A stretch of 64,000 bases of DNA from assembly GCA_965207375.1 (NCBI GenBank), contig OZ242274.1:64001-128000 (forward strand), given 5' to 3'. The stretch comes from Nitrosopumilaceae archaeon (GTDB taxonomy: Archaea; Thermoproteota; Nitrososphaeria; Nitrososphaerales; Nitrosopumilaceae). The notes under the pieces are model-generated. The model worked only from the letters and a program-made list of their open reading frames with translations. It was not told where the DNA came from and searched no databases. Position numbers and translations under genes: made by a program. Shown here piece after piece: positions 41,503 to 64,000 of the stretch (within the stretch, counting starts at the first letter, position 1; every line of letters begins with the position of its first letter).

Positions 41503-43135
41503 GTAACACTTCGACTTTCTGAAGTTTTCTTATAAAGCCAAATAGCAAAATATATTGATCACGTAATCATAACATAAATCGTTGATTTCGGGATTTGAGA
41601 TTACCGATATTGATTGGAATAACCCAGATGTTATCAAAATACTAGAATTTTTCAACAAAAGATTTGATGCTGTAGAAAAGGAAAACACACAACTAAAAGA
41701 CAAAATAAAACAGCTAGAAGATGAGAATTTAAAACTAAAGACCAAACGGCACAAATCAGGCCAGGTCACGTAGCTATAACAAAAGAGAGTTCAAGGAATA
41801 TCCACATACAGAAACCAGACCTGAGAGAAAGACAACATATGAGACCAGTCCAGATATCAGAAAAAAGACAGTAGACATGCCGCACTGTACAAACTGCGGC
41901 AATATACTGTCTGAATCTGCAAATTCGTACACCAGAACCATTGAGGATGTTGTAGATGGAAGATGGTGCAGTACCCAATGGACGATCCTGCGTCGTTACT
42001 GCAAAAACTGTAAATCTCAACAATCTGCACACGTGCCTGAGGTACTCTCAAACGAGCACTATGGCAATAACATAATGGCCATGGTCGTAGTGTTACGAAA
42101 CATGTCAATATCATTTGAAAAGATACGTCTCATCATATCTATGATGTATGGAAAACACATACCTGATTCAACCCTAGTCAAAATGTGTCACAAGGTATCT
42201 GATATGTGCAGACCCCTGTATGATTCTCTGCTTGAGGATCTAATCAAGGCAGGCGTGATATACGGAGACGAGACGGGTTGGCACCTTGACGAGAAAAGGT
42301 TCTGGGTGTGGGTATTTGCATCTCAATACATTCGATTATTCCACATAGCACCTACACGCAGCAAGCTGGTAGCAGAGGCAATACTGGGCGAATTTGACGG
42401 AATTACGAATTCAGATTCTTATCCGGGAGGGAACGATCTAGGTAAAGAGCAGCAGAGATGTCTGTTACATTATCATCGCGACATGTATCGCACCAAAGAC
42501 GGCACTGATAGTGACGAGTTTAAGAAATTATTTGAAGAGTTGCACAACATATTCAAGAGTGCACAGGATGCATGGGATGAAAAGGACATATCATCAGAGC
42601 TGATAGATTCGTTACAGAACAGAATAGATACGCTTGCAGAGCAGCAATATTCTGACAAGGATTGTAAGCGATATGCCAAGCGGCTCAAGAGAGAAAGAAA
42701 TCAACTACTTACATTCCTGCGTCATCCTAATGTTGAATATCACAATAATACCAGCGAGAGGGCGCTACGAGGTGTGGCTCTGATGCGCAAAATACTGTAC
42801 GGAAATATATCTAAGAGAGACCTAGAAACTACAGAAACGCTTGCCACAATCTATGCCGCCTGCAATGTACGCAGAATCAATCCGTATCGATTCTTTAAGG
42901 ATTTTCTTGATGGCAAGGTTACTGACATACCAATGCCTGTGGCATGTCTTCCCGTGTGTGTAAAACCACAACTGCCGGTACTAGCAGCTGCTGCCTAGAT
43001 ATTTCCTTATAGTAAAAGATACTGTTTCATCTGATGTTTTGATACGGGTACAATACCCAGACATATTGACATGTCAGTAATAATTTCTGCTGTCAAATTG
43101 ATTTTCCAGACAACTTCAGAAAGTCGATCTGTTAC
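41503..43135 (+). mobile_element. IS66-family element A (frameshifted transposase: 41582..41773 + 41877..42998)
   Basis: 24-bp TIRs GTAACACTTCGACTTTCTGAAGTT / AACTTCAGAAAGTCGATCTGTTAC (2 mismatches); motifs GDETGW, SDSY, QRC..H, NN.SERALR; no TSD. Confidence 0.88.
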
Positions 43136-43349
43136 AATTATTTTTTATGTGCATCCATTACCGTTTTGATTCCGTGTTTCTGTCAGGTTGGTAAATCTGA
43201 GGATATTGCACCGGCTGGGACAGGTAACTTGCACACGATGTCATTTATTTTGTCATGCTGTATCAGTAGATTTCTGTACACATCACCTATGATATGCCAT
43301 GTCTTGACCCCACGTTGGCGTGCTCTACGTAGACACGTATCCTCGAGTG
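43136..43349 (-). pseudogene. IS5/ISL2-type (DDE_Tnp_4-like) transposase remnant, interrupted by IS66 element B
   Basis: Joining across element B gives RIHSRIRVYVEHA / GVKTWHIIGDVYRN...DKINDIVC; homologous to 53806..54046. Confidence 0.7.
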
Positions 43350-44844
43350 GTACTTGTTCACGTGGTGTCTACAATTTCACCATTTGTTCAAATTTTGATC
43401 ACCATCAGATCTAAATCATTCTGACTCACAAGTTGTATAATGAGTACCATCAACTGGAAAAGTGCATACAAAAAGGAACACCGAAAAGTCCTTCTTCTTG
43501 AATCTCTAGTATCAAGTTTACAAAAAATCATATTACAAAAAGATGACCTCCTACTACAAAAAGATAAAAAAATTCAAGAGCTTACCAAACGTGACAACTA
43601 TCATGACAATTCCAATACTCCTCCATCTAAGGATTCCATTACACGCAAGCAGGACCGCAAAATACGTGCAGAGAACAAAAAATCTACTGGAAAAAAACAG
43701 GGAGGACAACCTGGTCGCACAGGTGTAGCCCGCAAGGTCAAAGTAGATGAAGAAAAAGAGCACAAATTAGACACGTGTACCAAGTGTGGTTCTCAAGACA
43801 TACACCATACAGACACCAAAATCAGGATAATAACTGATATTGTGAAAACTCCTCCTCCACATACTTGCAAGCACAAGATTCATGGGTATCATTGCAACTG
43901 CTGTGGAGCTACTGACATTACACCCGAGGTTGACATTCCAAAAAAGGGTCAGTTTGGAAATGAAGTGATAAAGGAGATAATGGATAATCACATACATCGC
44001 ATGCCGGTACGTATGAACAAGGAGGCCATGAAAAGACGTGGAATCGAAATATCTGAAGGAGGTATTCAAAACATCATAGATACAGTCTCTGATGCGTTAT
44101 TTGTGCCTGCAAATGAGATAAAAGAAAAGATACAGGAAGCCGAGATTCTGATAGCAGATGAGACATCAGAGCGACTGCATGGAAAGACTATATGGTTGTG
44201 GACGTTTCATAATCCAATTACAAGTGAGAATTTCTATATAATTAATCCCAGCAGGGGAGCAAACGTACTCAAGGAAATAATAGGTGACTCACAAGATATA
44301 ATCATAACCTGTGACGGATGGCCTCCATACCGCAGATATATCATCCAGAGATGTAACGCGCACCTAATACGTGAAATCAAAACAATATCACAAAAGAATC
44401 CAGATTCTAAAATTGCAAAAAATACACTGCAATGCCTACAAAAGATATACCATGACGGCAAACATGTCCTAGACAAACCACCTGATTACCGAAAATCATA
44501 TGCTGTACAATTGGAAAAAAGAACACGTAACCTTGTCAAAAGGTATGCCAATGATGAAATTGTGGGTAAATTTGTAGCAAAACTGTCACGGGCCATACCT
44601 GACATGTTCCGGTTTGTCATAGACCCTCGTATACCATCTACAAGCAATCTTGCAGAGCAGAGCCTGCGTGAGTATGTTGTGTGCAGGAGAATACGTGGAT
44701 GTCTCAGATCTGAAAAAAGTATGGAGCGTAGAGGCAATCTGTATACGTGTGTTACTACCTGGAAGAATCTGGGACAGGATTATCTAGCAGAGCTGGTTCG
44801 GTACATTTAGGGCCAAAAATGCTCAAAAATAGGTGAACAAGTAC
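43350..44844 (+). mobile_element. IS66-family element B (single-ORF ISBst12-like), apparently intact
   Basis: Perfect 12-bp TIRs GTACTTGTTCAC / GTGAACAAGTAC; 8-bp TSD CTCGAGTG at 43342-43349 and 44845-44852. Confidence 0.95.
43440..44810 (+). CDS. IS66-family transposase
   Basis: NSNTPPS, GGQPG, zinc finger, ADET, CDGW, QRCNAHLIRE, TSNLAEQSLR. Confidence 0.93.
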   Translation: MSTINWKSAYKKEHRKVLLLESLVSSLQKIILQKDDLLLQKDKKIQELTKRDNYHDNSNTPPSKDSITRKQDRKIRAENKKSTGKKQGGQPGRTGVARKVKVDEEKEHKLDTCTKCGSQDIHHTDTKIRIITDIVKTPPPHTCKHKIHGYHCNCCGATDITPEVDIPKKGQFGNEVIKEIMDNHIHRMPVRMNKEAMKRRGIEISEGGIQNIIDTVSDALFVPANEIKEKIQEAEILIADETSERLHGKTIWLWTFHNPITSENFYIINPSRGANVLKEIIGDSQDIIITCDGWPPYRRYIIQRCNAHLIREIKTISQKNPDSKIAKNTLQCLQKIYHDGKHVLDKPPDYRKSYAVQLEKRTRNLVKRYANDEIVGKFVAKLSRAIPDMFRFVIDPRIPSTSNLAEQSLREYVVCRRIRGCLRSEKSMERRGNLYTCVTTWKNLGQDYLAELVRYI

Positions 44845-48177: not shown

Positions 48178-50085
48178 ATGATATTAAAATTAATTCAAGT
48201 GAAGAATTTTCGTTCCATAAAAGATGAGGTTTTAGTCTGTGACAATCTGACTGCTCTTGTGGGTGTAAACGGTTCGGGAAAGTCTTCTTTTTTGCACGCA
48301 ATTGAGTTATTTCAAAGCAAGTCACCGCGAGTAGATGAAGAAGATTACTATGATAGGAACACTATAGAGGACATCGTAATAGCTATAACATTCAAAGATC
48401 TGTCGGAATCGGCAAAAAACCGGTTTGCAAAATACATACAAAACGATGAACTAACAGTGGAAATGGTCATAACATGGAATGATGGTAACTCAGCCCGAAG
48501 ATTTCATGGTTCGATACTACAGAATCCGGATTTTAGTGAAATTATCCGCGAAGACAAGGCAGAAAATGCAAAGAAAATATACAATGAGTTAAGAAAGAAT
48601 GAAGATTACAAACACTTTCCAAATTGGTCAAGTTTCTTAAAAGCAAAAAAATATCTCGAGGATTGGGAAACCGAAAATTCCAGCAAGTGCGACAAAATAC
48701 GTGATGATGGGCAATTCTTTGGTTTAAATGTACAAAGACATCTTGAAAGATTTGTAAGATTTTTGTACATACCATCAGTACGTGATGCCGCCGATGATGC
48801 ACAAGAAGGAAGAGATTCTGTCCTGACCAAACTGATGAATTTAGTTATAAGAAAAAATCTGGAAGAAGAAGAAGATATTAAAAAATTTCTGGAAGACACC
48901 AAAAAAAGATATGTCAAGATGATGGACACATCAAAGTTGGAGGAACTAGAACACCTAGAAGAAAAGATGACTAAGACTCTTCAGAATTTTGTGCCCGATG
49001 CCAAAATAAATCTAGCATGGCAGTCTCAGGAACCAGGAATTAAATTCCCAGATGCGGTAGCGAATGTGGTAGAAGATGACTATCAAACAACGGTAGCTAG
49101 GACTGGTCATGGACTTCAAAGAGCTTTCATAATGACTATGTTACAGCATCTATCAATTGCACAAGCCGACAGTACAAAAGAGGAAGCATCATCTTCTGAC
49201 GAATCATCTACACTCATACTTGTGATAGAGGAGCCAGAACTTTACCAACACCCTAGCAGACAACGTCATCTTGCAGAGGTATTCCTTTCGTTAGCAAAAG
49301 GGACGATGCAGGGAGTTTCTGGAAACACACAAATTATTTACAGCACACATTCTCCCCATTTTGTTGGCATTGACAGGATAAATCAAATCAGACTATTGCG
49401 AAAAATAAAGACCGATGCTAAAAAACCAAGAACAACCAGGATATTCAGTACTAATCTGAACGAAGTTGCCACCGAATTATCAAAAGTATGGCAACAATCT
49501 GGATTTACTGCCAATACTCTAGCACCACGCCTTCAAAGGATCATGACGCCGTGGATGAATGAAGGGTTTTTTTCAGATGTTGTTGTTTTGGTTGAAGGTG
49601 AGGATGATCGGGCGGCCATTATTGGTACAGCAGAATCACTCGGTTATAAATTTGAAAGTATGGGAATTTCTGTAATTCCATGTTTTGGAAAGACCAATGT
49701 GGATAAACCCGCGATAATATTTAGAAAATTTAACATTCCTGTTTATATCATATGGGATGGAGATAAAGGGAAAAGAGATGCGGTTGCACAAGAAAATCAC
49801 CGTCTTTTGTCATTGATGGACCAAGATAAGGAAGATTGGCCATCGAACATAACCGATACTTTTGCATGTTTTGAAACAAATATGCAAGATTTCATGAAGA
49901 GTGAAATTGGTGAAACTCTGTTTGAACGTTACATGAATGATTGTAACACAGATTTTTACATGAAAAGGGACCAAGCCCTGAAAAACCCAGCCGTTATTTC
50001 TACAATTATAAAAAGAGCAAAACAAGAGGGTCAATCATGCAAAAAGTTTGAGACAATTGTGAAGAAGATAATAGGTTTGAAGTGA
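48178..50085 (+). CDS. OLD-family ATP-dependent nuclease (ABC ATPase + TOPRIM)
   Basis: KNFRSI, Walker A GVNGSGKS, IEEPELYQHP, STHSP, TOPRIM VEGEDD and WDGD. Confidence 0.92.
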   Translation: MILKLIQVKNFRSIKDEVLVCDNLTALVGVNGSGKSSFLHAIELFQSKSPRVDEEDYYDRNTIEDIVIAITFKDLSESAKNRFAKYIQNDELTVEMVITWNDGNSARRFHGSILQNPDFSEIIREDKAENAKKIYNELRKNEDYKHFPNWSSFLKAKKYLEDWETENSSKCDKIRDDGQFFGLNVQRHLERFVRFLYIPSVRDAADDAQEGRDSVLTKLMNLVIRKNLEEEEDIKKFLEDTKKRYVKMMDTSKLEELEHLEEKMTKTLQNFVPDAKINLAWQSQEPGIKFPDAVANVVEDDYQTTVARTGHGLQRAFIMTMLQHLSIAQADSTKEEASSSDESSTLILVIEEPELYQHPSRQRHLAEVFLSLAKGTMQGVSGNTQIIYSTHSPHFVGIDRINQIRLLRKIKTDAKKPRTTRIFSTNLNEVATELSKVWQQSGFTANTLAPRLQRIMTPWMNEGFFSDVVVLVEGEDDRAAIIGTAESLGYKFESMGISVIPCFGKTNVDKPAIIFRKFNIPVYIIWDGDKGKRDAVAQENHRLLSLMDQDKEDWPSNITDTFACFETNMQDFMKSEIGETLFERYMNDCNTDFYMKRDQALKNPAVISTIIKRAKQEGQSCKKFETIVKKIIGLK

Positions 50086-50704: not shown

Positions 50705-52582
50705 TTAATTTAAATTCCAAATCTGGTCAGCGTATTTTGCAAAATTATCTTCTCGCTGTTTGATTATATTTGCAGTCCATTCATCATAATTGCATACTGT
50801 CTGCTGGTTAATTTCAAGCTTAGAACCTACATATCCAATCTGAACTCCATTGCTGTCTTTTTGAAATTTTTTGATAGAAAATGGAAGATTGGAATTATTT
50901 GTGTTCACAACCTTGTGTAATAAGGTAAGATTTCCTAGTCGATTCTTGAATTCATCAATTTTGGACTCTCCATCATATCCTGCAAAAAATGCTTTCATAT
51001 CCCATTTCTCAGAGTTTTGTGGAAGTATGTGTTCTAGGGTAAGATCATCTATAGGTCTTACGTCATCATATTTGGTACCAAGATGTATAGAAATTTGTTG
51101 TAGTATGTATTTTACTGCATCTTTCTTAGGATCCTCCATGAATTTTTTAAAGTTGTAAACAAAATCTTCATGGTCATCATACTTTTTGAGTTTATCAATA
51201 ACTGCCTGATAAGAATCGCCAGAGTTAATCATTCCAACTATTACATCAATTATTTTTTTGATATCGCCAGGGTGTTCCTTCCGTATGACTCTCACTTTAA
51301 AGAAAAACTTGACCAAAAATTGTACTAGCTTAGAATAGTCATTTGGTTTTTGAACATACCACTGACGATATGCTGCAAGTAATGGAACACGTATGAATTT
51401 TGCCTTAAGTATTTTGATTACATGTACATCATCTTTACTGTCTTCGTCAAAGTATTGGGAAGGATCAGATAATCCTGATAGATATTCAGCATCTGTTTCT
51501 AGTTCCTTTATAAAGTCCTCACATGATTTTTCGTCAGTTACAATCTTTTTGATAATCTTATACAGATTCTTCTTTGACATAGAAAGTTTTGGTTCCGAGT
51601 TATCAGATTGATCATATTTGAGACGAAGTGAATTACGTTCTTTATGTCGCGAATAATAAGATTCCATAATAAATTCATCATCTTGTTGATTGTTGCCTAT
51701 AACCTTATCGAAGATATTGTTCCAACGATCACTTTGCTTCTTTTGCATATCTAATGTCTTAATTTTGTTCAAGATGTGGTTTTTAATCAAATTTGATTTG
51801 GATAGTGTTTGTCCCCTTTCATTTAATGTCTCAAATATTTGAAATGCAGTATTATCATCATCAACCATGATCAAAACAACATAATTGTAGTCACATACAA
51901 AATCAATAAAATAGCTCATTAAAGGAATGTTATGCTCCATGTGTTTTGTCTCACGATGTTCATCATAATCTTTAGAAGTTGAATTTGAAGTATTTGGAGC
52001 AAAATCATTAGCAAGACATAACAATAATTTTTCGTGTAATAAATTATAATTTTCAACAAGCAGCTTATTAGATTTTGTTTTAAATTTTTTATTTTTAAAA
52101 CGCACCGCTTGGGATTCTTTATCATGTTCATATTTTTGTATTTCATTGAATAGATCCTTATCAGTATCATTAAGTTCTAATTTCCATCCAAGTTCTTGGC
52201 CCATACTTTTGTTGAGAAGAAGATTATCAATCTTGTTTACGCCCTCAATTTGATTGTACTCATACATTATATCTCGCACAACACAAAACAACATCGTGAG
52301 TGTAGCTAATCTTTGCTGCCCATCTATTACAAGGAATTCCTGTTCTTCTTTACTAGTAACAAGTACCATAGGTCCAAACAGATATTGTGCATCAGGTACA
52401 GGTTCAGCTCGGTTTTTGACAAGATCAAAACTTTCCAAGAGATCGGTCAATAATGCTCCTACTTTTTCTTTGTCCCAATCGTAGTTGCGTTGAAATCTTG
52501 GAACTTTAAGCAGCTGTTTTTGGGACAATAATTGGCCAATAGATACAGCTTTTGTATTTGCAAATTTATTATTAAACGCCAA
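50705..52582 (-). CDS. DUF262 + DUF1524 (HNH) protein, GmrSD / SspE-like
   Basis: VPRFQRNYDW, IDGQQR, FETLNERG; C-terminal TLEHILPQ...LGNLTLL..N. Confidence 0.92.
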   Translation of the reverse strand: MAFNNKFANTKAVSIGQLLSQKQLLKVPRFQRNYDWDKEKVGALLTDLLESFDLVKNRAEPVPDAQYLFGPMVLVTSKEEQEFLVIDGQQRLATLTMLFCVVRDIMYEYNQIEGVNKIDNLLLNKSMGQELGWKLELNDTDKDLFNEIQKYEHDKESQAVRFKNKKFKTKSNKLLVENYNLLHEKLLLCLANDFAPNTSNSTSKDYDEHRETKHMEHNIPLMSYFIDFVCDYNYVVLIMVDDDNTAFQIFETLNERGQTLSKSNLIKNHILNKIKTLDMQKKQSDRWNNIFDKVIGNNQQDDEFIMESYYSRHKERNSLRLKYDQSDNSEPKLSMSKKNLYKIIKKIVTDEKSCEDFIKELETDAEYLSGLSDPSQYFDEDSKDDVHVIKILKAKFIRVPLLAAYRQWYVQKPNDYSKLVQFLVKFFFKVRVIRKEHPGDIKKIIDVIVGMINSGDSYQAVIDKLKKYDDHEDFVYNFKKFMEDPKKDAVKYILQQISIHLGTKYDDVRPIDDLTLEHILPQNSEKWDMKAFFAGYDGESKIDEFKNRLGNLTLLHKVVNTNNSNLPFSIKKFQKDSNGVQIGYVGSKLEINQQTVCNYDEWTANIIKQREDNFAKYADQIWNLN

Positions 52583-52607: not shown

Positions 52608-53354
52608 TTATGTTTTAAAATGATCCAGTACATAAGTATAAAACTCTCTGTGTGTTGAAAGCATTTTTTTACTGCCACCTTGCCTTATGTAAAAATCATC
52701 GAGAACACGTTCATGTTTTTCTGTATCATTTGATGAAATTACGAATTTGAGAGGTTTGTTAGCTTTATTCAAATTACGAAAAAACCAAGGTTTGGTACTA
52801 GATTTTATTTTAATTTCTATGATCTGTACCTCTAACACATATACAAACCTAATGTTAACGAGTGAACCAAGTGCAGTATCTGAATCTAGATATTTATCAA
52901 GAGCGTCCATTATTTTTCTTTCCAATTCGTCACATAATGTGTAATTTGATTTGTTCTTATGATCTGTAATATGGCTAAAATCATAATCAAGACCAATCAG
53001 ACGTTCCGTCAAGGTACCCGTATCACCTACTCCTATATACAAATAACCTCCATCAGAGTTCAGAAATGATTGTACTGTCTTTGGTATCACCATGGTGGAC
53101 ATTACTTTTTCTGAAAAATTTGCCTTGTTTTCTGTATATTGATCTTCATACATGATCCTTTCTTCGATTATTTTTTCGGAATTCATGATTTGAATCACAC
53201 GTCCCTTGTCGCCATTATCTAAAAGTACAGTAATTTTGTTACTGGTAGGATCTACAAGTATATGAGATACTCGACCCGTAGAGGTTTTCCTAGGATCTGA
53301 TAATAGTATTATTTCAACATAATCCCCTACATTGACGTTAAGCTTTGAACTCAC
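52608..53354 (-). CDS. YwbE(DUF2196)-like domain fused to a Schlafen/AlbA_2 domain
   Basis: N-terminal VGDYVEI...GRVSHIL...VLLDNGDKGRV; core EDQYTENK, FLNSDGGYLYIGV.D, FYIRQG. Confidence 0.78.
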   Translation of the reverse strand: MSSKLNVNVGDYVEIILLSDPRKTSTGRVSHILVDPTSNKITVLLDNGDKGRVIQIMNSEKIIEERIMYEDQYTENKANFSEKVMSTMVIPKTVQSFLNSDGGYLYIGVGDTGTLTERLIGLDYDFSHITDHKNKSNYTLCDELERKIMDALDKYLDSDTALGSLVNIRFVYVLEVQIIEIKIKSSTKPWFFRNLNKANKPLKFVISSNDTEKHERVLDDFYIRQGGSKKMLSTHREFYTYVLDHFKT

Positions 53355-54118: not shown

Positions 54119-55669
54119 ATGAAGAACTATTCAGAATTAGAATACGCGGAACTCTTCAAAAAATTTTTTGATATTGGTGGACTTCAAGGGCCGCACAAAT
54201 GTATCTTTCTACATGCTCTTACAGACATAGGTCTGATTGATAACAACGATCTGATCGGAAAAGAATGGATTTCACAAGATGGACCCAATGTAATACTAAA
54301 TCTGAATTTTATGGCAGTCAGATTTGCGAAGGCATATCACGGCATATTGAGCTTGAATATTAAACACAGTCCTGCACACAAGAATCAACCCTCGATACTT
54401 GCTACATTTAAAGACTACACGGGGTCTGATTTTCCAACTCTGGCATACCTTGCCTCTGGAAAAATGAAATTTTTTCGAAGCAAAATAATTCGACGCGATA
54501 TAGTACTTGAGGTTTTACCCAATCTCGTAGAGCAAACCAACAAGAAAAAACCACCAGATTTTCCTGGAATGTATGATTGGGCCCGTAGAACCGACACCAT
54601 TGTATTCAAAAGAAGCTTGGTTGATTTTATGAAATCAAAACGGAGCTATCTGAGATATGAATTAGGAAAAAAACTAAAGAATTATTTGGAGGAATTGAAT
54701 CCCGGTAAAGAAATCTCGAGAACTTTTGTGGATACTGACAACCCGTTCTATCAGTATGTGATGGGACAACAAAGAGTGTTTTTGGCAGGTGTTGAGCGTG
54801 AGACGGAAGTGCGACGGTTTGAGCAGTTTATGGAGACTGATGTAAAGATGGAGCATGTGACCTGTGTTGACTCGCCGGTGCGAGTGTGGGGGCTACGATC
54901 TACCCGTGACAACAAAGAGGTGTGGAAAAAAATCAGGTACGGGGATATCATTTTATTCTCAAACAACAATCAATGTTTTGCCAAGGGGAGGGTCCTACAG
55001 ACTATGCAAAATGCTGATGAGGCAGAACGTTTGTGGGGTAAGGATGATAAACCCATCCGTGATCTTTTAATCATGTTCGAGAATGTTGCTGCCATGCAAT
55101 TGAATTTGGTAGACTCTCGTACACGACTAGTCAAACCTACAATGCCTGACGAGTACAACTTTCCAATCATTCAAGTAGATGAAGGGCTTGTGGCTGAGCT
55201 GATTTCTGCTTATCATGACATCGAGACAGCAATGGATAATGTATCCGAGCCAATAGAGGATGATATTCACAATGTGTCCGTTTCATTGATGGAGAGAAAG
55301 ACCAAGGTACGGAGGGGACAGGGTGCATTCAGAGCAGAAGTATTGAAGAACTATGACAAGAGATGCGTCGTATGCGACATAAACGAAAAGGACTTGCTAG
55401 AGGCAAGCCATATACTTCCTGTTAGAAACCTCGAGTCTGCTGGCAATATCAAAAACGGAATATGTCTATGTGTTCTACATCACAAAATGTTTGATCAACG
55501 ATACATGTATTTTGACACCGACTATGCCTTGAAATTTATGAGTAAAACGTCACAATATCTGCAAGATACTTGCACTAAGATGAAAATCACCGAATCAATG
55601 TGCCGTGAAATGCCATCCAAGGAATACCTAGAAAAATCATCCCGTCTCGTTAGGTGCCAAGAATCATGA
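54119..55669 (+). CDS. Multi-domain HNH endonuclease (possible SBD-like + PUA/EVE-like + HNH)
   Basis: C-terminal RRGQGAFR..V...Y..RCVVC...LEASHILP...NGICLCVLHHKMFD; central VWG...W..IRYGDIILF; N-terminal PHK.IFL.AL. Confidence 0.85.
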   Translation: MKNYSELEYAELFKKFFDIGGLQGPHKCIFLHALTDIGLIDNNDLIGKEWISQDGPNVILNLNFMAVRFAKAYHGILSLNIKHSPAHKNQPSILATFKDYTGSDFPTLAYLASGKMKFFRSKIIRRDIVLEVLPNLVEQTNKKKPPDFPGMYDWARRTDTIVFKRSLVDFMKSKRSYLRYELGKKLKNYLEELNPGKEISRTFVDTDNPFYQYVMGQQRVFLAGVERETEVRRFEQFMETDVKMEHVTCVDSPVRVWGLRSTRDNKEVWKKIRYGDIILFSNNNQCFAKGRVLQTMQNADEAERLWGKDDKPIRDLLIMFENVAAMQLNLVDSRTRLVKPTMPDEYNFPIIQVDEGLVAELISAYHDIETAMDNVSEPIEDDIHNVSVSLMERKTKVRRGQGAFRAEVLKNYDKRCVVCDINEKDLLEASHILPVRNLESAGNIKNGICLCVLHHKMFDQRYMYFDTDYALKFMSKTSQYLQDTCTKMKITESMCREMPSKEYLEKSSRLVRCQES

Positions 55670-55691
55670 TATGTAAGGGCAGACACTAGAC

Positions 55692-57806
55692 ATGACACTA
55701 AACATGCCTGACTGGCCAAAATCCAGATATGACTCTAGACTAAACAACATAGCTACGGAATTTTTCATTCGGGCACTGCAAAACTCCACCACCTATAGGC
55801 GACTGGGAGGGTTTTTTTCTTCCACAAGCCTTGCATTGGCCGCACGTGGAATAAAGGAACTGATTAAGAACGAGGGCAAGATGCAGCTCGTGGTCAGTCC
55901 CATACTCACGAAGGAGGATTCATACATGCTAAATGATTGCACGTCAGAGCAACGGGATGACATCATTAACAAATCACTCCTTGAAGAATTTGATCTTGCA
56001 GACGAATTTGAGAAGAATCATGTTGCCGCCCTAGCATACCTGCTGAAAAAAGAGTTCTTGGAGATAAGAATAGACATTCCAAAGGACATTGAAGGCAGAT
56101 GTCTTGACTATGATTCCATGATGCAGAAAAACATGCTTGATGAAAAGCTTGGGATCTTCCAAGATCGAGAGGGTAATGCAATTTCCTTTAGGGGACCAGT
56201 GAATGAAAACAGGCAGAGCTGGGAACATGGTGTGTTCTCTATAACAGTAGATGTGGATTGGATCGACGGACAAAAGTCCCACGTCCTTGACGACATTGAC
56301 CGATTTGAGAAAAAATGGAACGACAATAACATATTGAGACTGCCCCAGAAGACGCACGACAGCATAGTAGCCAATGCACCAAGCGACGTGCAAGAGATCG
56401 ACTTGGACAAGTTCAACGTCCCTCCATGGGCCATGCTGTCAAACGGAAACATACTATGGGATCACCAGATACGAGCAGTCAACTCTTGGACGAATTCAGA
56501 TTATCGCGGAGTATTGAGCATGGCAACCGGCGGAGGCAAGACCCTGTCGGCGCTAGTATCGGCAAGCCTTGTGCCTGTAGATTCATTAGTATTGATACTG
56601 GTTCCGACCAAGGTACTGATAGACCAATGGGAAAAAGAGATACGCCTGTTTGAACCCGACGCAGATCTGATTTTATGTGACAGCACCCATGCCACGTGGA
56701 ATACAATCCTGTCAGGTAAGTTGATTCCATATGTGACAGGAAACCCCAAACGAGACAAACCACTATTCGTTTTATCCACCATGAACACCGCTTCAGGCGA
56801 AAAATTCAGGAGGAGTTTTGAACACATCAAAAAAGAATTTATCACCATGATTTCAGATGAGGTGCACCATCTTGGAGCTCCCGAATATAGCAAGATCTTC
56901 GAGATCAATGCGCAAAGAAGACTCGGGCTTAGCGCAACGTTTACACGGGATTGGGACGAAATTGGAACGCGCAGAATACTGGATTACTTTGGCCATCAGC
57001 TTGACGGGGAGTATACCATCTCAGATGGGATACGTGATCGGAAACTTAGTCGTTATGAATATCATCCCTTTTTGGCATATTTGGATGAATCAGAGTATGA
57101 TGAATATGCAGGATATTCAGTCAGCATAGGAATGCTGTATGCCAGATTGAGTAACACAAAAGATCCAGTCATACGGTTCGAACTTGAGAAAAAATATCAC
57201 AAACTCCTAAGGGACAGGGCCGAGATAATCAAGAAAACCAAAGACAAGCTACGCGCATATTCCGAGATACTCCTAACGTCGCCAAAAAAACCCTACATTG
57301 TATTTGCAGATGACCACGATCAAGTGGCAAAGCTAAAGAAGGTTCACAAGGACACCATACGCCAGATTAATCTACAGAGATCAGATGACTTGGAGAAAGA
57401 TGACATAATGACGTTTTCTGGCAAGTTAAACGATATCGAACGGCTAAAAATACTCAAAGAGTCTAAATCCAACAAAACACCCCTGTTTGCAATGTATTGC
57501 CTAGACGAGGGAGTGGACGTTCCAGAGTTTCAGTCTGCTATACTGGTGTCTAGTTCCACCAGCAAGAGGCAGTACATACAGAGACGCGGGCGGATTCTCC
57601 GGACTGGCAGGCAGAAGGTGGCACATCTGTATGACATAATAGCCCTACCAAACCCCCATTCATATCACGTCGACCCAGACGATGCCAAGACCATAGTAAG
57701 GAAAGAAAAGGATAGAGTGAACGAGCTTGCGCGAGATGCAGTTAACAAATGGGTGGCAATAGGAAAAATAGACGAAAGTCTCCGCGATCTCGGTTTCCTA
57801 TCATAA
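55692..57806 (+). CDS. pbeA: PbeA-like PLD-domain SF2 helicase (phosphorothioation-associated)
   Basis: Y.R..GFFSS, degenerate PLD motif LDEKLGIFQD...FRGPVNE, MATGGGKT, DEVHH, GLSAT, CLDEGVDVP, QYIQRRGRILR. Confidence 0.82.
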   Translation: MTLNMPDWPKSRYDSRLNNIATEFFIRALQNSTTYRRLGGFFSSTSLALAARGIKELIKNEGKMQLVVSPILTKEDSYMLNDCTSEQRDDIINKSLLEEFDLADEFEKNHVAALAYLLKKEFLEIRIDIPKDIEGRCLDYDSMMQKNMLDEKLGIFQDREGNAISFRGPVNENRQSWEHGVFSITVDVDWIDGQKSHVLDDIDRFEKKWNDNNILRLPQKTHDSIVANAPSDVQEIDLDKFNVPPWAMLSNGNILWDHQIRAVNSWTNSDYRGVLSMATGGGKTLSALVSASLVPVDSLVLILVPTKVLIDQWEKEIRLFEPDADLILCDSTHATWNTILSGKLIPYVTGNPKRDKPLFVLSTMNTASGEKFRRSFEHIKKEFITMISDEVHHLGAPEYSKIFEINAQRRLGLSATFTRDWDEIGTRRILDYFGHQLDGEYTISDGIRDRKLSRYEYHPFLAYLDESEYDEYAGYSVSIGMLYARLSNTKDPVIRFELEKKYHKLLRDRAEIIKKTKDKLRAYSEILLTSPKKPYIVFADDHDQVAKLKKVHKDTIRQINLQRSDDLEKDDIMTFSGKLNDIERLKILKESKSNKTPLFAMYCLDEGVDVPEFQSAILVSSSTSKRQYIQRRGRILRTGRQKVAHLYDIIALPNPHSYHVDPDDAKTIVRKEKDRVNELARDAVNKWVAIGKIDESLRDLGFLS

Positions 57807-57840
57807 ACAAGTTTAAAAAAACCACTACCAAGCAGATATT

Positions 57841-58026
57841 ATGCCTGATGCCTATGATGAGATAATAAAGATCCTAACGGACGTGGAAGCCGAAAACAAG
57901 ATTCCCGCTGGAACACTGAAAAGCATCTACGAGACGGAGAAGGCAGTAGTGCATCTAAGGGTGCGGGATAACATACACGACCATCTACAGGGCTTAGTGT
58001 CTGATGCTGCAGGGAAGATGAACTAG
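57841..58026 (+). CDS. pbeB: PbeB-like small protein
   Basis: 61 aa between the helicase and the SMC-like ATPase (1-bp gap); assigned by position. Confidence 0.6.
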   Translation: MPDAYDEIIKILTDVEAENKIPAGTLKSIYETEKAVVHLRVRDNIHDHLQGLVSDAAGKMN

Positions 58027-58027
58027 G

Positions 58028-59974
58028 ATGTTGTTTAGAGGCATAGAGATTTGCAATTTTGGCAGATATGCTGGAACCAATTTTTTTGACACCACTGTGA
58101 CTGACGACAGGAATGTAATACTGGTCAAGGCCAACAACGACCGTGGCAAGACCACACTGTTCCAGGCAATCAAGTTTGCCATGTACGGCGATGAGGGAAT
58201 ACGTCCCAAATCCACAAGTGACTGGATAAATCTCCAAAAGGCTTCAGAGGGGGACGGTGAGATGCACGTGGAAATAAAATTCGATCACGAAGGATACGCG
58301 TACAGGCTAAGACGCCTTGTCAAGTTTAGAAAAACCGAAAGAGGAAAGGAGATTGCAACTGTGGGTAATCCGTCGGTGGAGATCTTTAAGAATGATAACC
58401 CCCATATGACTGGAGACTCCGACTCTAACAAGAGGGACTGGATAGATACGATTCTGCCAAAGGACGCAAGCCAGTTTTTCTTTTTTGATGGTGAAGAGAT
58501 TCAAAAGTACATACATCATGAGGAGTCCCACGTAAAACAGGCCATAGAGAAGGTCCTCGGAATTAAGGAATTGCTCAACGCCAAAGAGGACATGTATGAG
58601 ATTTTTGAACGCTTTCAGACAGAATACGACAGAAACATCCGAAAACATGCAAAGGACGAAAAATCCCGAAACGAACTGGAGAGGATAAAAAACGAATTGA
58701 AAAACGCCGATGAATTCATCGAAGCTCAACAAAGGTTCCAAAACGGTGCAGAGGCAGAAAAAAACAGACTGGACAAGGAACAAAAAAAATATGAGAACAT
58801 AAAAGTAACCGTAGATGCACGCGACACGGCAGAGAGAGAGTTGGAAAATCAGAAAAAACTACTGCACGCCAACAAGAAGGAACTTACTGCGACTAGGGGA
58901 AACACCAGTCTTATTCTGTTATCCCCGCTCCTTGAGATCATCCACAGGACCGAGGAGGATCCGCCATCAGTGGATCGGTGGCAGTCAGAGACAATTAGGT
59001 ACATACTTAGCAACTTTGACCAATGCGTGTGTGACAGGCCGATCGATCAACATGTGCGAGATGTATTCAATACCAAGATTCTGGATATAAAACCATCAAA
59101 AACATCAATTATCAAAAAATCGGTAAACAACATGCTCATCGAGCACGAACCTGCCGCAAAATGGGTACGGCTCCAAGAAAACCTAGAAAAGGCGGCTGAC
59201 ATAATGCAGGAAATCGACAAACAAAAAAGCACAATCAAAGACCTGAACAGGCAGATCCGGAACAATGAAAGCACCCAGGCCATAAAGGAATTACAACAGA
59301 AGTACGAGGAAATCGTTAAAGATATCGGCGTGTCAGAAAAGAAACTCGAACAGTACAAAGCTACAAAATCAAAACTGGAAAATCAGAAAAAAACCATAGA
59401 CGCACGCATAAACGCCAGTGTAGTAGATACTCAGCTGACCTTGGCCACACGAAGAAAAGACACCTGCCAAACAGTGATGGAATGTATACATCAAAGCATA
59501 GAAAAGTTCTACGAGATAAGAAAACCAGATCTTGAAGCGCACATATCGAAGATCTTCTCTTCCCTCACCAACAATCCCGATATGTACAAGGGATTGAAAA
59601 TAGACAGGAACTTTAACATGAGGGTGATAAGAAACGACGGTACGGAGCTTCCCACATTCAAGTACAGCCCCAGCGCTGGTGCATCGCAGATAGTTGCCAC
59701 GTCTATGATTGGAGGACTGAACAAATTTGCCACGCGTGACGCCCCAGTCGTCATAGACACTCCCATGGGACGGCTTGATCCAGAACACAGAAAGAACCTG
59801 ATAAGTTATTACTCCAAAATGAGCAAGCAGATAATTATACTGTATCAGCCAAGTGAATTGGAAGATGAAGACATACAAAACATCAATGACAGCCTTGCGT
59901 CAGAGTGGGAGATAGACTCGCAACCAGATCATCCGGACTTGTCATGCATACACAGAGCGAGGTCACACATATGA
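58028..59974 (+). CDS. pbeC: PbeC-like SMC/Rad50-type ATPase (DndD paralogue)
   Basis: NFGRY, ANNDRGKTT, FFFFDGEEI, coiled coil with CVC hook, SAGASQ, IDTPMGRLD. Confidence 0.8.
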   Translation: MLFRGIEICNFGRYAGTNFFDTTVTDDRNVILVKANNDRGKTTLFQAIKFAMYGDEGIRPKSTSDWINLQKASEGDGEMHVEIKFDHEGYAYRLRRLVKFRKTERGKEIATVGNPSVEIFKNDNPHMTGDSDSNKRDWIDTILPKDASQFFFFDGEEIQKYIHHEESHVKQAIEKVLGIKELLNAKEDMYEIFERFQTEYDRNIRKHAKDEKSRNELERIKNELKNADEFIEAQQRFQNGAEAEKNRLDKEQKKYENIKVTVDARDTAERELENQKKLLHANKKELTATRGNTSLILLSPLLEIIHRTEEDPPSVDRWQSETIRYILSNFDQCVCDRPIDQHVRDVFNTKILDIKPSKTSIIKKSVNNMLIEHEPAAKWVRLQENLEKAADIMQEIDKQKSTIKDLNRQIRNNESTQAIKELQQKYEEIVKDIGVSEKKLEQYKATKSKLENQKKTIDARINASVVDTQLTLATRRKDTCQTVMECIHQSIEKFYEIRKPDLEAHISKIFSSLTNNPDMYKGLKIDRNFNMRVIRNDGTELPTFKYSPSAGASQIVATSMIGGLNKFATRDAPVVIDTPMGRLDPEHRKNLISYYSKMSKQIIILYQPSELEDEDIQNINDSLASEWEIDSQPDHPDLSCIHRARSHI

Positions 59975-60423
59975 GTGGCGACTCACCCGATGAATCTTGG
60001 TGTATCTCGGGCGATCCGTTGGAGATAAAGTCCGCCCTAAAGGAGGTGTATGACGACCTAGTAGAGGGTGAAGGATTATTCCCCAACAACTATTCCCTGT
60101 TCTGTGTTGGCCTAGTGTATGGGGTGTTGTACAAAAAACGACACGAGGTAAGGCCGACGGCCTCATTCATCAAGCTCTTCGCGATAACCGATCCTGTGAG
60201 CAAGGACGTGATCGACTTGATCTACCGCCTTCTCGACGATGGACAGTGTGACAAAAACGAGATCTGGCAGGAGATGCTCTCGATTGCAGACGGTGGAGTC
60301 TTGGCACTAAATGACATATACAAGGCAAACAAGAACTTTACCATCCCACATCTGCTTGAGGAGGCAAGAAAACTGTGGCAATCCAGAACCAAAGATCTTC
60401 ACAACTTGAACCTCCGTGCATGA
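59971..60423 (+). CDS. pbeD: PbeD-like protein
   Basis: ATGA overlap with the pbeC stop; last gene of the operon; assigned by position. Confidence 0.6.
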   Translation: MSGDSPDESWCISGDPLEIKSALKEVYDDLVEGEGLFPNNYSLFCVGLVYGVLYKKRHEVRPTASFIKLFAITDPVSKDVIDLIYRLLDDGQCDKNEIWQEMLSIADGGVLALNDIYKANKNFTIPHLLEEARKLWQSRTKDLHNLNLRA

Positions 60424-60477
60424 TCGCAGACTACTTTTTAGTAGACGGACAGTAGCGCGACCTTGCCTAAACTGGTG

Positions 60478-60547
60478 AAAAATGCGATAAATTTTATGCC
60501 TTAAATTGAAAATTTTATTTCGAATTGATCAATGGTGCATGAGGTCT
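60478..60547 (+). mobile_element. MITE copy 3 (partial, right end)
   Basis: GCCTTAAATTGAAAATTTTATTTCGAATTGATCAATGGTGCATGAGGTCT followed by ACTGTT, as in copy 1. Confidence 0.75.
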
Positions 60548-60629
60548 ACTGTTTCAATCTATATCAAATATAAAATTGCACAATAAACAATTCGAAAATC
60601 AATGTGATTGACTATAGAATTTTTCACTG

Positions 60630-61004
60630 TCATTTTTTGTTGTTTAATTGATAACTAACACAATGTTCATTAAATTTTTTTTCTGTCAGACTAATTACCA
60701 TGTCTTTTAGATCTTCATATTTTTGTCTGGAAATTTCTAATATGAATGAATTTTCTGATGGTGTCGGCATTCGGTTAAATTCTTCTAAAAATCGAGTAAA
60801 AAGTATACCCTCCAAACATCCTAGATAATAATGTAAATATGCCAGTTCATATGAAACCTTGTTATTTTTAATTAAAACTAGACTTTGAGCAATATTTGGA
60901 TAAGACTCCCCTTCAATGGCATTCATCCGTTCAACTGTTTTATCATAAGCGAAATCCAAAAGAATTTCAATTTTCATTTTTGTATCTAAATCAGGCATAA
61001 ACAC
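60630..61004 (-). CDS. Hypothetical helical protein downstream of dndA
   Basis: 124 aa; 4-bp gap after the dndA stop. Confidence 0.7.
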   Translation of the reverse strand: MFMPDLDTKMKIEILLDFAYDKTVERMNAIEGESYPNIAQSLVLIKNNKVSYELAYLHYYLGCLEGILFTRFLEEFNRMPTPSENSFILEISRQKYEDLKDMVISLTEKKFNEHCVSYQLNNKK

Positions 61005-61008
61005 AACC

Positions 61009-62169
61009 TCATGTTACCATACTCATTAGTGATTGTATCACTTTAGATATAGTCTTAATACAGTAATTAACATCTTCTTTACTATTGAATCGCCCTAATC
61101 CGATACGTATTGAAGAATGTACATGCGCCTCATTATATCCAAGAGAAAGTAACACGTATGACGGTTCCACCATCTGAGTAGTACATGCAGAACCAGCAGA
61201 TATGGCAATCTCTTTTGATACTGAATTAATTATTGCCTTGCTCTCCACATCTGGAAAATACATATTAAGATTATGAGCTAGTCGGTTTGTTGGATGACCA
61301 TTTAATTTTCCACCAATCTTTTCAAATTCAGTTAGCATCAAATCTGACCATTCTTTGAATCGTTTATTTTCTGAATCCATCTCTTTTTGTGCAATTTCAG
61401 ATGCCTTGCCAAAACCAACAATTCCCGGAACATTCAAAGTACCAGAGCGGATATTTCTCTCCTGTCCTCCTCCAAACATTATAGAATCAGGCCTTACTCG
61501 TGGTTTTATTCCGCGCACATAAAGGGCACCTACACCCTTGGGACCATACATCTTGTGTGCAGAAAAGGACATCAGATCTATATTCATCTTCTCAACATTA
61601 ATTGGAATATGTCCTACTGCCTGTGCTGCATCTGTATGAAAAATAACATTGTTCTCATGGGCTATCTTTCCGATGGCAGTCACATCTGCAATCGTACCAA
61701 TCTCATTGTTTGCAGTCATTATGCTAATCATTACCGTATCATCAGTAATTGCAGATTCGAGTTCCTCAAGATTGATTTGGCCATACGAATTTACCGGCAA
61801 ATAGGTCACTTTTTTCCCAATAGCCTCCAAATGTCTTGCCGTATCAAGTACTGCCTTGTGTTCTGTTACACAGGTAATCAGATGATTACCTCGATTTTCA
61901 TATTTTTCCATGGTTCCAATTAATGCAATATTGTTTGATTCAGTAGCACCTGATGTGAATATAATCTCATCATGTCTTGCCCCAACTGCATTTGCTATTG
62001 TCTCCCTTGCAGATTCGACTGCCACAGATGCCTCATATCCAAAAGGATGATCCAAGCTTGAGGCATTACCGAATTTTTCTGTAAGGTATGGCATCATGGC
62101 ATCTAATACGCGCCGATCAAGTGGCGTGGTTGCATGATGATCAAGGTATATGACCTTAGAACCAGACAT
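61009..62169 (-). CDS. dndA: Cysteine desulfurase DndA
   Basis: YLDHHATTP, TSGATES, SAHKMYGPKG, SAGSACT; directly after dndE. Confidence 0.9.
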   Translation of the reverse strand: MSGSKVIYLDHHATTPLDRRVLDAMMPYLTEKFGNASSLDHPFGYEASVAVESARETIANAVGARHDEIIFTSGATESNNIALIGTMEKYENRGNHLITCVTEHKAVLDTARHLEAIGKKVTYLPVNSYGQINLEELESAITDDTVMISIMTANNEIGTIADVTAIGKIAHENNVIFHTDAAQAVGHIPINVEKMNIDLMSFSAHKMYGPKGVGALYVRGIKPRVRPDSIMFGGGQERNIRSGTLNVPGIVGFGKASEIAQKEMDSENKRFKEWSDLMLTEFEKIGGKLNGHPTNRLAHNLNMYFPDVESKAIINSVSKEIAISAGSACTTQMVEPSYVLLSLGYNEAHVHSSIRIGLGRFNSKEDVNYCIKTISKVIQSLMSMVT

Positions 62170-62170
62170 A

Positions 62171-62560
62171 TTATACAGTCTCCTTGCCTTTCATGTATGA
62201 TTTCAAAAGATTTCCAAAGTCTCCAATTTCATCTATACGTGGAAAAAGCATTCCGGCACCGCGATTAAGATGTGCACGGATCATTCGGTCTGCATACGTC
62301 TCATAGTCCAACCTATCCTCAGAAAGCCGTTGCTGAAACAATAATGAAAACACAAGCTCGTTTTTCCCATACAGTATGTGTGGGAGCAGCTCCATTCCCT
62401 TTTCATCATACATGTCAGAATTGGGGATACTTGGGTCATTAAGAGACAAACATATTCCAAACCTGGCAAGTACGTTTATTGAAACTCCTGTCTTGTGCTT
62501 GAGCTGTCCCAGATGATTCTGTGATCTTATTGAAAGACGCACCTTATCTAATCTGTGCAA
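62171..62560 (-). CDS. dndE: DNA sulfur modification protein DndE
   Basis: VRLS...L..LK.KTG...NVLARFGICLSL, GMEL, RAHLNRG; TTG start overlaps the dndD end. Confidence 0.9.
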   Translation of the reverse strand: MHRLDKVRLSIRSQNHLGQLKHKTGVSINVLARFGICLSLNDPSIPNSDMYDEKGMELLPHILYGKNELVFSLLFQQRLSEDRLDYETYADRMIRAHLNRGAGMLFPRIDEIGDFGNLLKSYMKGKETV

Positions 62561-64000
62561 GTTCTCCCTCCAGGAAATAGCCGGGCTCAACTGTAGTAAC
62601 AGATTTTCTCTTATCACATGTAATCTTGTATGATCTGGTAACATATTTTGACATCATATCATATTCCTTTGGAGATATTTCTCTGTCAGTTGATAATAGT
62701 ACAATCTGATGTGATGCAAATGGATAAAACTTTTCAACAAGGTTTGTCAGATGTTGACCATCTAGTCTTCCAAGCGGAGTGTCAATTACAAATGGCAATG
62801 ATCTTCCACACATCCTTGCAATTGCCCAAAGCAGTGCAGTACCCACAATCTGTCGTTCCCCCATTGATAAAAAGTCACCAGGAATCTGATCCTCGTTGTT
62901 CTCAAATACCTTAACCTCAAACGTATCTCTGTCTATCTCTATCTTTCGTATTGATTCCTTGTGCAAAAGCATTCTTGCAGTATACAGCAGATTTGATTCA
63001 AGTTCTCTTATCTTTCTCTCTTTGAGAGCAGAATAGTACGTATCTAAGACATCTTGCATCTTAGATGCAAGCTGCATGCCTGTGGATGCCGTCTTGTTGT
63101 TGTATATCGAGGTCAGCATTGCTTTTAGCTTTCCCTGTAGTATTTTCCTGTATGATGACTTTGATGATATCTGTTGATCCAAGTGTGTTAGTTCTCCCTT
63201 GAGAATTCCCATCTCTTGGTGCATTTCATTGATTTCAGTTATGCGTGGTCCAAGCTCATCGTCTTTTGGAATCCTTGCAATATCTGATTCAACAGTTTCA
63301 GCCCTTTCCTGTATTTTTACAAGATTGGTAGATATCTGAACCATATCATCAGAACCTGCATCAATTCTTTTAATCATTTCAGAAAAATATTGTACATCAG
63401 CAGGTGACAGATCAAAGTGAACCTTATCTTTTCCTGAATTGCCAAGTTCCCTAAATGCCTCAAGCATCCGTTTGGTTGCAGCTGCTGCATTAACACCTGA
63501 TGGCCAAAACTGCGAGTCAGACATCATTTTTTCTAGTCCCTGTACAAACCCTGCATTCATGTTTGCCATCATACCATACATGGTCTTTGAATCGTTTTGG
63601 ATCTTGTCATGTATTTTGTGTAACATCGATGAAACTAGATAGAATGGAGCATCTCCGGATAATTCTTCCTGGAGCTGTTTTGTCTGTACACGTACCTTTT
63701 CTTCTAAAACTGCCTTTTGTGTCAGTAGATCGCCTCGCATGTCTGCATAACCTCCCCCGATTCCAGATATTGCAGATTCCTTTAGTGCTATCTTTTTTAC
63801 CATCTCATCAATCATAGATGTAATCTTTTCTCGTTCCTGATTCAGTTCTTTTACCTCATGTATTAGTTGGTTTTTTTCTTCTGTCAGTTTTTCATAATCT
63901 TTGAGTAATGTGTTGTTTTTGTTACCACTTTTTCTTAATACGTACAAATTCAAATCTGCACGTAATCTGTGCACTAGTTCGGCCCCTATCAACGTCTCAA
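62544..64000 (-). CDS. dndD: DNA sulfur modification protein DndD (5' part outside the window)
   Basis: Coiled coil; LSMGERQ, LLWAIAR, PFVIDTPLGRLD..H, FYPFASHQIVLLSTD.EI. Confidence 0.93.
   Translation of the reverse strand, partial: ETLIGAELVHRLRADLNLYVLRKSGNKNNTLLKDYEKLTEEKNQLIHEVKELNQEREKITSMIDEMVKKIALKESAISGIGGGYADMRGDLLTQKAVLEEKVRVQTKQLQEELSGDAPFYLVSSMLHKIHDKIQNDSKTMYGMMANMNAGFVQGLEKMMSDSQFWPSGVNAAAATKRMLEAFRELGNSGKDKVHFDLSPADVQYFSEMIKRIDAGSDDMVQISTNLVKIQERAETVESDIARIPKDDELGPRITEINEMHQEMGILKGELTHLDQQISSKSSYRKILQGKLKAMLTSIYNNKTASTGMQLASKMQDVLDTYYSALKERKIRELESNLLYTARMLLHKESIRKIEIDRDTFEVKVFENNEDQIPGDFLSMGERQIVGTALLWAIARMCGRSLPFVIDTPLGRLDGQHLTNLVEKFYPFASHQIVLLSTDREISPKEYDMMSKYVTRSYKITCDKRKSVTTVEPGYFLEGELAQIR

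Follow-up and report, generated by a model that had tools for sequence, protein, structure and literature searches.

A reader-HNH nuclease gene precedes a pbeA gene that has lost its HKD histidine codon in the Dnd-Pbe defence island of a Nitrosopumilaceae archaeon

The window described here is a 64,000-nucleotide stretch of the genome of a Nitrosopumilaceae archaeon (G000:C1:64001-128000, the host genome being labelled G000), and it contains a phosphorothioation (PT) defence locus of the Dnd-Pbe type with a variant Pbe module. The helicase PbeA of this locus has lost the catalytic histidine of its N-terminal HKD/PLD-like domain. The pbeA gene is directly preceded by a gene encoding HNH516, a 516-residue protein that combines a winged-helix N-terminal domain (NTD), a PUA-superfamily domain, and an HNH nuclease domain. 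It is somewhat probable that HNH516 is an integrated fifth component of the Pbe module, which has replaced the decayed HKD nuclease of PbeA. The case for a replacement nuclease is built on the histidine loss in PbeA, the conserved linkage of the two genes, the intact HNH residues, the contigs shared by homologues of the two proteins, the complete module, and the base composition.

The alignment of PbeA comprises 29 homologues, including the window protein and the PbeA of a second dnd-pbe island in the same genome. The canonical motif F-H-x-K-x-G-I-x-x-D...S-F-S-G-S-x-N-E is kept in 16 of the sequences, and the HKD histidine is missing from the other 13, which are the window protein, 11 close relatives, and the PbeA of the second locus. 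In the window protein and its relatives, the histidine is replaced by aspartate, serine, alanine or asparagine, and the G-S of the motif by G-P. The window protein itself reads D-E-K in place of the canonical H-x-K, a change of histidine to aspartate, and GPVN in place of GSxN, and the domain still aligns. The histidine, lysine, aspartate, and asparagine of the motif are all gone from the PbeA of the second locus. Searches of Pfam find no PLD (PLDc) domain in either PbeA of the genome, even at E ≤ 5, and a precomputed PLDc_2 match is present in only three among the 120 PbeA homologues listed. An earlier note on this DNA had suspected the loss of a catalytic residue from the PLD domain of PbeA, and the histidine-to-aspartate change together with the missing Pfam match bears this out. 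The matches of some stand-alone proteins of about 220–230 residues are confined to the N-terminal PLD-like part of PbeA (profile positions 1-235, E ~1e-36 to 1e-44); such proteins are common in genomes of the family without a full PbeA, for example at G001:C1:1187299-1187937.

Full-length PbeA is encoded in 7 of 401 genomes of the same phylum (eight loci) and in 7 of 401 genomes of Actinomycetota, with helicase-only matches not counted as PbeA. In addition, three metagenome contigs (L032, L033, and L034) carry a PUA-HNH gene beside pbeA. Contig L033, in which a PUA-HNH gene is followed by pbeA but which ends before the HKD motif, was left out of the counts. In all six His-less loci with known context, pbeA is immediately preceded by a PUA-HNH gene in the same orientation, whereas none of the 11 His-bearing loci has such a gene; the earlier note had proposed to test this co-occurrence. 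The distance between the two genes is 22 bp in the window, 1 bp in the second locus, where the HKD motif of PbeA is fully degenerate, 0 bp in G281, 36 bp in L032, and 17 bp in L034, and in G341 the genes overlap by 20 bp. In the four His-bearing loci from the same phylum, the position upstream of pbeA is occupied by dndA (G366), an insertion sequence (G251), a DNA methylase gene (G264), and a gene for a 305-residue NTD protein without an HNH domain (G161). Neither Pfam nor tblastn detected an HNH gene at the seven actinobacterial His-bearing loci. Furthermore, 15 of 35 full-length HNH516 homologues are from contigs of exactly the same size as that of a close PbeA homologue, which implies that the two genes share a contig. 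In a tree of PbeA from a quick IQ-TREE search (37 rows, midpoint-rooted), the His-less proteins fall into two distinct clades, one of 14 rows and one of 3, both with a support of 100 in the SH-like approximate likelihood ratio test (SH-aLRT) and with stems of 0.79 and 1.11. The His-less label needs two changes on this tree, and its starred branches force at least two. In L032 and L034, the PUA-HNH gene has Schlafen homologues at its flank. At L032:112-4326, an EVE-domain McrB gene, a McrC gene, and a Schlafen AlbA_2 gene stand directly upstream of PUA-HNH-pbeABCD.

The structure of HNH516 was modelled with AlphaFold2 from 32 homologues, with a predicted local distance difference test score (pLDDT) of 84.2 and a predicted template modelling score (pTM) of 0.82. 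About 35 full-length relatives, 32–86% identical to HNH516, are nearly all metagenomic; one is assigned to a Cenarchaeum sponge symbiont. Residues 218–516 match the EVE-HNH enzyme VcaM4I (6yex) in sequence (phmmer 1.2e-05) and in fold (Foldseek 3.5e-07, VIA Z 12.4). The middle domain, residues 218–380, is predicted to read flipped modified bases. It is similar to the N-terminal domain of McrB from T. gammatolerans (Thermococcus) bound to DNA containing 5-methylcytosine (Z 11.9, root-mean-square deviation (rmsd) 3.3, 143 aligned residues), to the EVE protein PH1033 (Z 10.5), and to YTH, ASCH, and THYN1 structures (Z 8–9), and its residues W257, W269, F280, and W306 are invariant across the 32 homologues. 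The HNH part aligns with that of TagI with a Z of 11.9. TagI has the composition SRA-HNH, and its alignment covers the HNH domain only, while the middle domain of HNH516 matches EVE, YTH, and ASCH structures at Z 8–12. The residues C416, C419, H431, N446, C449, C451, H454, and H455, which include catalytic and zinc-binding positions, are invariant in 32 of 32 homologues, and by its residues the HNH domain is intact and looks active. The NCBIfam family PT-DNA_restrict matches only the HNH part of the protein. A profile of the HNH516 alignment retrieved 20 loci from the genome contigs, 19 of which match in the HNH domain only, and two loci from viral contigs, both HNH-only.

The genes HNH516, pbeA, pbeB, pbeC, and pbeD are separated by 22, 34, and 1 bp and by a 4-bp overlap of the pbeC stop codon with the pbeD ATG, and they apparently constitute one operon. 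The ATG of pbeD at 59971 corresponds to residue 23 of an open reading frame (ORF) starting at 59905. The five plus-strand genes converge on orf124, dndA, dndE, and dndD on the minus strand. The ORF map matches exactly the gene order, gaps, overlap, and convergence given in the earlier note, and the names of PbeA, PbeB, PbeC, PbeD, DndA, DndD, and DndE are supported by PADLOC. The dndD gene extends past the window to window-equivalent position 64532; its complete ORF of 662 codons matches DndD at 2.1e-162 in PADLOC. The dndC gene, which the earlier note had proposed to look for beyond position 64000, is intact and lies just past the window on the minus strand at G000:C1:128613-129905 (window-equivalent 64613-65905), with a score of 532 bits against a cut-off of 290. 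It is followed on the same strand by dndB (PADLOC 8.7e-131) and by the gene of a 319-residue NTD-HNH protein, which is also outside the window. All the Dnd ORFs are full length, and NCBIfam and Pfam agree with the PADLOC naming. The DndF and DndH families (TIGR03236, TIGR03238) had no match in the genome, but in a search whose controls matched no genome either and which is therefore uninformative. The match of DndE starts at residue 31, and the real start of the protein is therefore probably a later methionine. According to Pfam and PADLOC, PbeA carries ResIII and Helicase_C domains and PbeC is an AAA_23 ATPase. A C-V-C motif is present at residues 333–335 of PbeC, and there is none in DndD. 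The fraction of guanine and cytosine (GC) is 0.41 in the HNH516 gene and 0.44–0.49 in pbeA to pbeD, both of which exceed the 0.37–0.38 of the genome. By these gene assignments, the locus is a complete and intact DndBCDEA-PbeABCD defence island with a variant Pbe module. A scan for sigma-70 promoters and terminators gave counts close to those expected from shuffled sequence, the sigma-70 model not being applicable to archaea; an A/T-rich, TATA-like stretch is seen by eye 24–39 nucleotides 5′ of the HNH516 start codon. The genome encodes an archaeal AmoA (8.9e-115), so the assignment to the ammonia-oxidising archaea, which the earlier note had made, stands.

Table 1 Features of the Dnd-Pbe locus and of the adjoining defence genes, in window coordinates
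Feature	Position	Strand	Description	Evidence
OLD-family nuclease	48178-50085		in defence island upstream of HNH516	
GmrSD-like protein	50705-52582		DUF262/DUF1524 protein	PADLOC HEC-06 and Dnd-group 'Orf5' matches, weaker SspE matches
Schlafen AlbA_2 domain gene	52608-53354	-	recurrent neighbour of HNH-pbe module	Pfam SLFN_AlbA_2 2.5e-13
HNH516	54119-55669	+	516 residues; predicted N-terminal winged-helix, EVE/YTH-like PUA, and HNH domains	AF2 model, Pfam HNH_2
NTD of HNH516	54119-54733	+	residues 1-205; predicted winged-helix fold, sulfur-binding-domain-like	domain-only model, pLDDT 86.4
PUA-superfamily domain of HNH516	54770-55258	+	residues 218-380; EVE/YTH-like, predicted base reader	VIA-align
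HNH domain of HNH516	55304-55669	+	residues 396-516 and stop codon; nuclease domain	Pfam HNH_2 5.3e-11
pbeA	55692-57806	+	704 residues; SF2 helicase with N-terminal HKD/PLD-like domain without catalytic His	PADLOC PbeA 2e-164
pbeB	57841-58026	+	small protein, 61 residues	PADLOC PbeB 4e-05
pbeC	58028-59974	+	CxC-type ABC ATPase, 648 residues	PADLOC PbeC 4.6e-103
pbeD	59971-60423	+	DndE-like partner of PbeC	PADLOC PbeD 5.6e-18
orf124	60630-61004	-	conserved small protein, 124 residues	28 homologous clusters
dndA	61009-62169	-	cysteine desulfurase, 386 residues	PADLOC DndA 1.2e-161; Pfam Aminotran_5 1e-83
dndE	62171-62644	-	157 residues	PADLOC DndE 4.5e-32; Pfam DndE 3.4e-18
dndD	62544-64000	-	C-terminal 484 codons within window	PADLOC DndD 1.5e-100 for this portion

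A second complete dndBCDEA and pbe island, reached through a second dndC match, is located at 1.505-1.525 Mb of the same contig (G000:C1:1505000-1525000, L004). It begins with two HNH genes on the minus strand, encoding proteins of 471 and 329 residues, which are followed on the plus strand by the gene of a 290-residue HNH protein, pbeA, a small ORF, pbeC, a pbeD-like gene, and the gene of a 737-residue protein. Then come the gene of a 302-residue protein on the minus strand, dndB, dndC, dndD, dndE, and dndA, and a Schlafen AlbA_2 gene after dndA. The 290-residue protein encoded directly upstream of the second pbeA is related to the PUA-HNH part of HNH516, and the proteins of 329 and 471 residues are related to the 319-residue HNH protein encoded beside dndB of the first locus. 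Paralogues of the two loci are 29–66% identical, which indicates two distinct systems and no recent duplication. The 737-residue protein is conserved; it has an N-terminal C2H2 zinc finger and occurs in G281 and G341 as well.

Comparison of the NTD model with 48,161 chains identified three solved sulfur-binding domains (SBDs) as the best matches, all of them weak (Z 6.5–6.9): those of Hga (Z 6.9, rmsd 3.2, 117 of 146 residues aligned), ScoMcrA (Z 6.5, rmsd 3.6, 126 of 158 aligned), and SprMcrA (Z 6.5). The winged helix of Cdc6/ORC ties with them at Z 6.5. Foldseek found nothing with the NTD model, and the NTD profile has no match at E ≤ 10 among the sequences of the Protein Data Bank (PDB). 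The ESM Atlas gives a weak lead to an SBD-containing cluster (score 0.84, with the SBD family in 30% of the members). The sulfur pocket of SBD-Hga is formed in part by His25 and Lys26 of helix A2, according to the part of the study cited here (PMC10602919). Residues H26-K27 at the start of helix 2 of HNH516 parallel this pair; the consensus of the NTD family at the same place is Y-K. The model suggests that the NTD is SBD-like in fold and position, on weak fold matches that tie with the Cdc6 winged helix. The family of the NTD is small, with 64 representatives among 1.84 billion proteins. According to Pfam annotation of 55 newly retrieved representatives, the NTD is fused to HNH domains and to a McrB-like AAA_5 ATPase and occurs in Mrr_N-containing proteins; no SBD family was annotated in them, with a Pfam library that lacks the SBD model (PF26340). 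This is the pattern expected for a DNA reader of type IV restriction systems, and it suggests that the NTD is a portable reader module. In proteins P0216, P0214, P0219, and P0223, the NTD is fused to a McrB-like AAA_5 ATPase or stands alongside Mrr_N and DUF7669 domains. A 358-residue NTD-HNH gene precedes dndBCDEA at G036:C1:1308000-1320000 (L094), with two more such genes 2.5 kb downstream; no pbe genes were found in the 30 kb around this dndBCDEA cluster. The NTD of HNH516 is 34% identical to that of the 319-residue HNH protein adjoining dndB. It is possible, although we consider it doubtful, that the NTD represents a new, sequence-distinct family of PT-sensing readers common to at least two types of HNH nuclease that bracket the Dnd-Pbe island. 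Within this proposal, PT in the host DNA would license or restrain the HNH nuclease that replaced the dead HKD domain of PbeA, the swap would have arisen at least twice, and one archaeon would possess two five-part systems of different specificity.

If HNH516 is the fifth Pbe component, the system would most likely function as follows. DndBCDEA would mark the host DNA with PT, and the CxC ABC ATPase PbeC together with the DndE-like PbeD would scan DNA. PbeA, in which the helicase is retained, would translocate along the DNA, and HNH516 would perform the cut that the HKD domain of PbeA can no longer make. The reader domains of HNH516 would discriminate between host-marked and invader DNA. The gene content, the folds of the domains, the histidine loss, and the conserved linkage are observed; the co-transcription and physical association of the proteins, the kind of DNA that would be cut, and the ligands of the reader domains are inferred.

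Several observations weigh against HNH516 as an integrated Pbe component, and most of them speak for its main rival, in which the protein is an autonomous type IV modification-dependent endonuclease similar to VcaM4I or ScoMcrA. Such an enzyme would cut invader DNA that contains modified bases or foreign PT, it would merely reside beside Pbe in the island, and the loss of the histidine from PbeA would be unrelated to it. The architecture of HNH516 is indeed that of autonomous type IV restriction enzymes, and its fold matches the stand-alone enzymes VcaM4I and TagI at the Z values given above. Genome G140 encodes a fused NTD-PUA-HNH homologue (an ORF of 561 residues), and neither dnd nor pbe genes are found less than 10 kb away from it. 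The locus is in a defence island with IS66 transposases, an OLD-family nuclease, a GmrSD-like type IV enzyme, and a Schlafen AlbA_2 gene, and the adjacency of HNH516 and pbeA could therefore reflect the clustering of nucleases in islands; the module on L032 likewise adjoins an EVE-McrBC system. Moreover, the association of HNH genes with His-less pbeA is observed in few loci and traces to two independent events of histidine loss at most, given the quick midpoint-rooted tree. A nuclease that binds PT in a host with PT-modified DNA also poses a problem of self-cleavage. Evidence against an autonomous enzyme is the position of the PUA-HNH gene, immediately upstream of pbeA and in the same orientation in all six His-less loci with known context, from both clades, and in none of the 11 His-bearing loci, together with the 15 contig coincidences between the families of HNH516 and PbeA. 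We regard the autonomous enzyme as rather unlikely.

The HNH proteins might alternatively be partners of the Dnd modification module and not of Pbe, acting as PT-sensing restriction enzymes in the manner published for the proteins with winged helix-turn-helix (wHTH), SAD, and HNH domains in Dnd loci, a role that is proposed in the cited portion of PMC10853773. The recurrence of the NTD in the 319-residue HNH protein directly upstream of dndB is consistent with this explanation, as is the NTD-HNH gene upstream of dndBCDEA in G036, where no pbe gene was found in those 30 kb. However, the PUA-HNH gene always adjoins pbeA and not the dnd genes, and whether it is present follows the state of the HKD motif in PbeA; we consider a partnership with Dnd quite improbable.

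The gene trailing dndA, which the earlier note had counted as an extra gene of the system, starts 4–10 bp past the dndA stop codon. That orf124 is a genuine gene is shown by its 28 homologous clusters, with identities of 48–64%. Neither a set of 60 genomes from the family nor the other dnd-pbe loci retrieved yielded a copy, however, and its GC fraction is 0.285, compared to 0.39–0.49 in its neighbours. As a sixth gene of the system it was rejected because of this absence and composition, and orf124 is probably not part of the system. Pfam, PADLOC, and NCBIfam provide no lead to a family or fold of orf124, the ESM Atlas returns only unnamed Nitrososphaerota clusters, and the profile scan of viral contigs has no match. 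Two adjacent IS66-family transposase genes at 41877-44810 of the window are possible boundary markers of a mobile or variable region with the defence island inside it. The host genome is unusually large for its group, with 4.3 Mb in four contigs (99.95% complete, 0.06% contamination), and the listed genomes of the family have 0.8–3.2 Mb.

Among characterised enzymes, the stand-alone VcaM4I, which depends on 5-hydroxymethylcytosine, is the best match to HNH516 in both sequence and fold, but it is without the 205-residue NTD. The host of ScoMcrA is said to be without dnd, unlike the window host, which has two dnd systems. ScoMcrA itself (PDB 5zmm, 5zmo), a PT-dependent type IV enzyme of the composition SBD-SRA-HNH, has the order of domains predicted for HNH516, a backbone reader, a base reader, and HNH; however, it has no detectable sequence similarity to the NTD. 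Enzymes of the SBD-HNH type are near dnd clusters in fewer than 3.6% of cases, as stated in the part of PMC7461809 cited. The dependence of a nuclease effector on PT in the host DNA has a precedent in SspE of the SspABCD-SspE system, in the account given by the cited text of PMC9646914. SspE is an unrelated DUF262/DUF1524 protein, and an SspE-type GmrSD-like relative is present in the window at 50705-52582.

The DndCDEA-PbeABCD system of Haloterrigena jeotgali shares with the window the Dnd modification genes, the order pbeA-pbeB-pbeC-pbeD, the ResIII and helicase-C domains of PbeA, and the AAA_23 domain of PbeC. In the description cited, its Pbe part is a four-gene module with a PLD domain (pfam13091) in PbeA (Xiong et al. 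2019, PMC6459918). By contrast, the PbeA of the window has neither the catalytic histidine nor a Pfam PLD domain, the apparent operon begins with an additional reader-HNH gene, the locus includes dndB, and the host is an ammonia oxidiser. The consulted portion of PMC10853773 reports wHTH(SBD)+SAD(SRA)+HNH nucleases in Dnd loci of 698 taxa, reinterprets PbeABCD as a CxC ABC-ATPase system, and argues that the HKD domain necessarily cleaves DNA. As far as that portion describes them, the published proteins resemble those of the window in the arrangement of two readers, predicted ones in HNH516, and HNH in a Dnd neighbourhood and in a PbeC with CxC and a DndE-like PbeD partner. They differ in that the middle domain of HNH516 matches EVE/YTH structures and not SRA, and in that its gene is upstream of pbeA and not downstream of the modification genes. 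The earlier note had known of no description of the architecture. Reader-HNH nucleases in Dnd loci are already covered by the same portion of PMC10853773, which makes no mention of a link to HKD inactivation. Literature searches found no publication in which a His-less PbeA is paired with a PUA-HNH gene upstream; such neighbourhoods may be listed in the supplementary datasets of PMC10853773, which are outside those searches.

The role of DNA cleavage in the antiviral action of Pbe is disputed, and the original study saw no degradation of DNA, as it is summarised in the cited parts of PMC7461809 and PMC10853773. A His-less clade of Pbe that is always paired with an active-looking reader-HNH protein makes this role directly testable: if cutting is required, another protein has taken it over; otherwise, the HKD domain acts in a non-catalytic way. 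Beyond the known SBD family, the NTD offers a candidate domain for reading PT. In 2017, Ahlgren et al. reportedly described PT genes in a marine thaumarchaeon. The locus presented here extends systems of the Dnd-Pbe type to marine ammonia oxidisers, whose defences against viruses are little studied.

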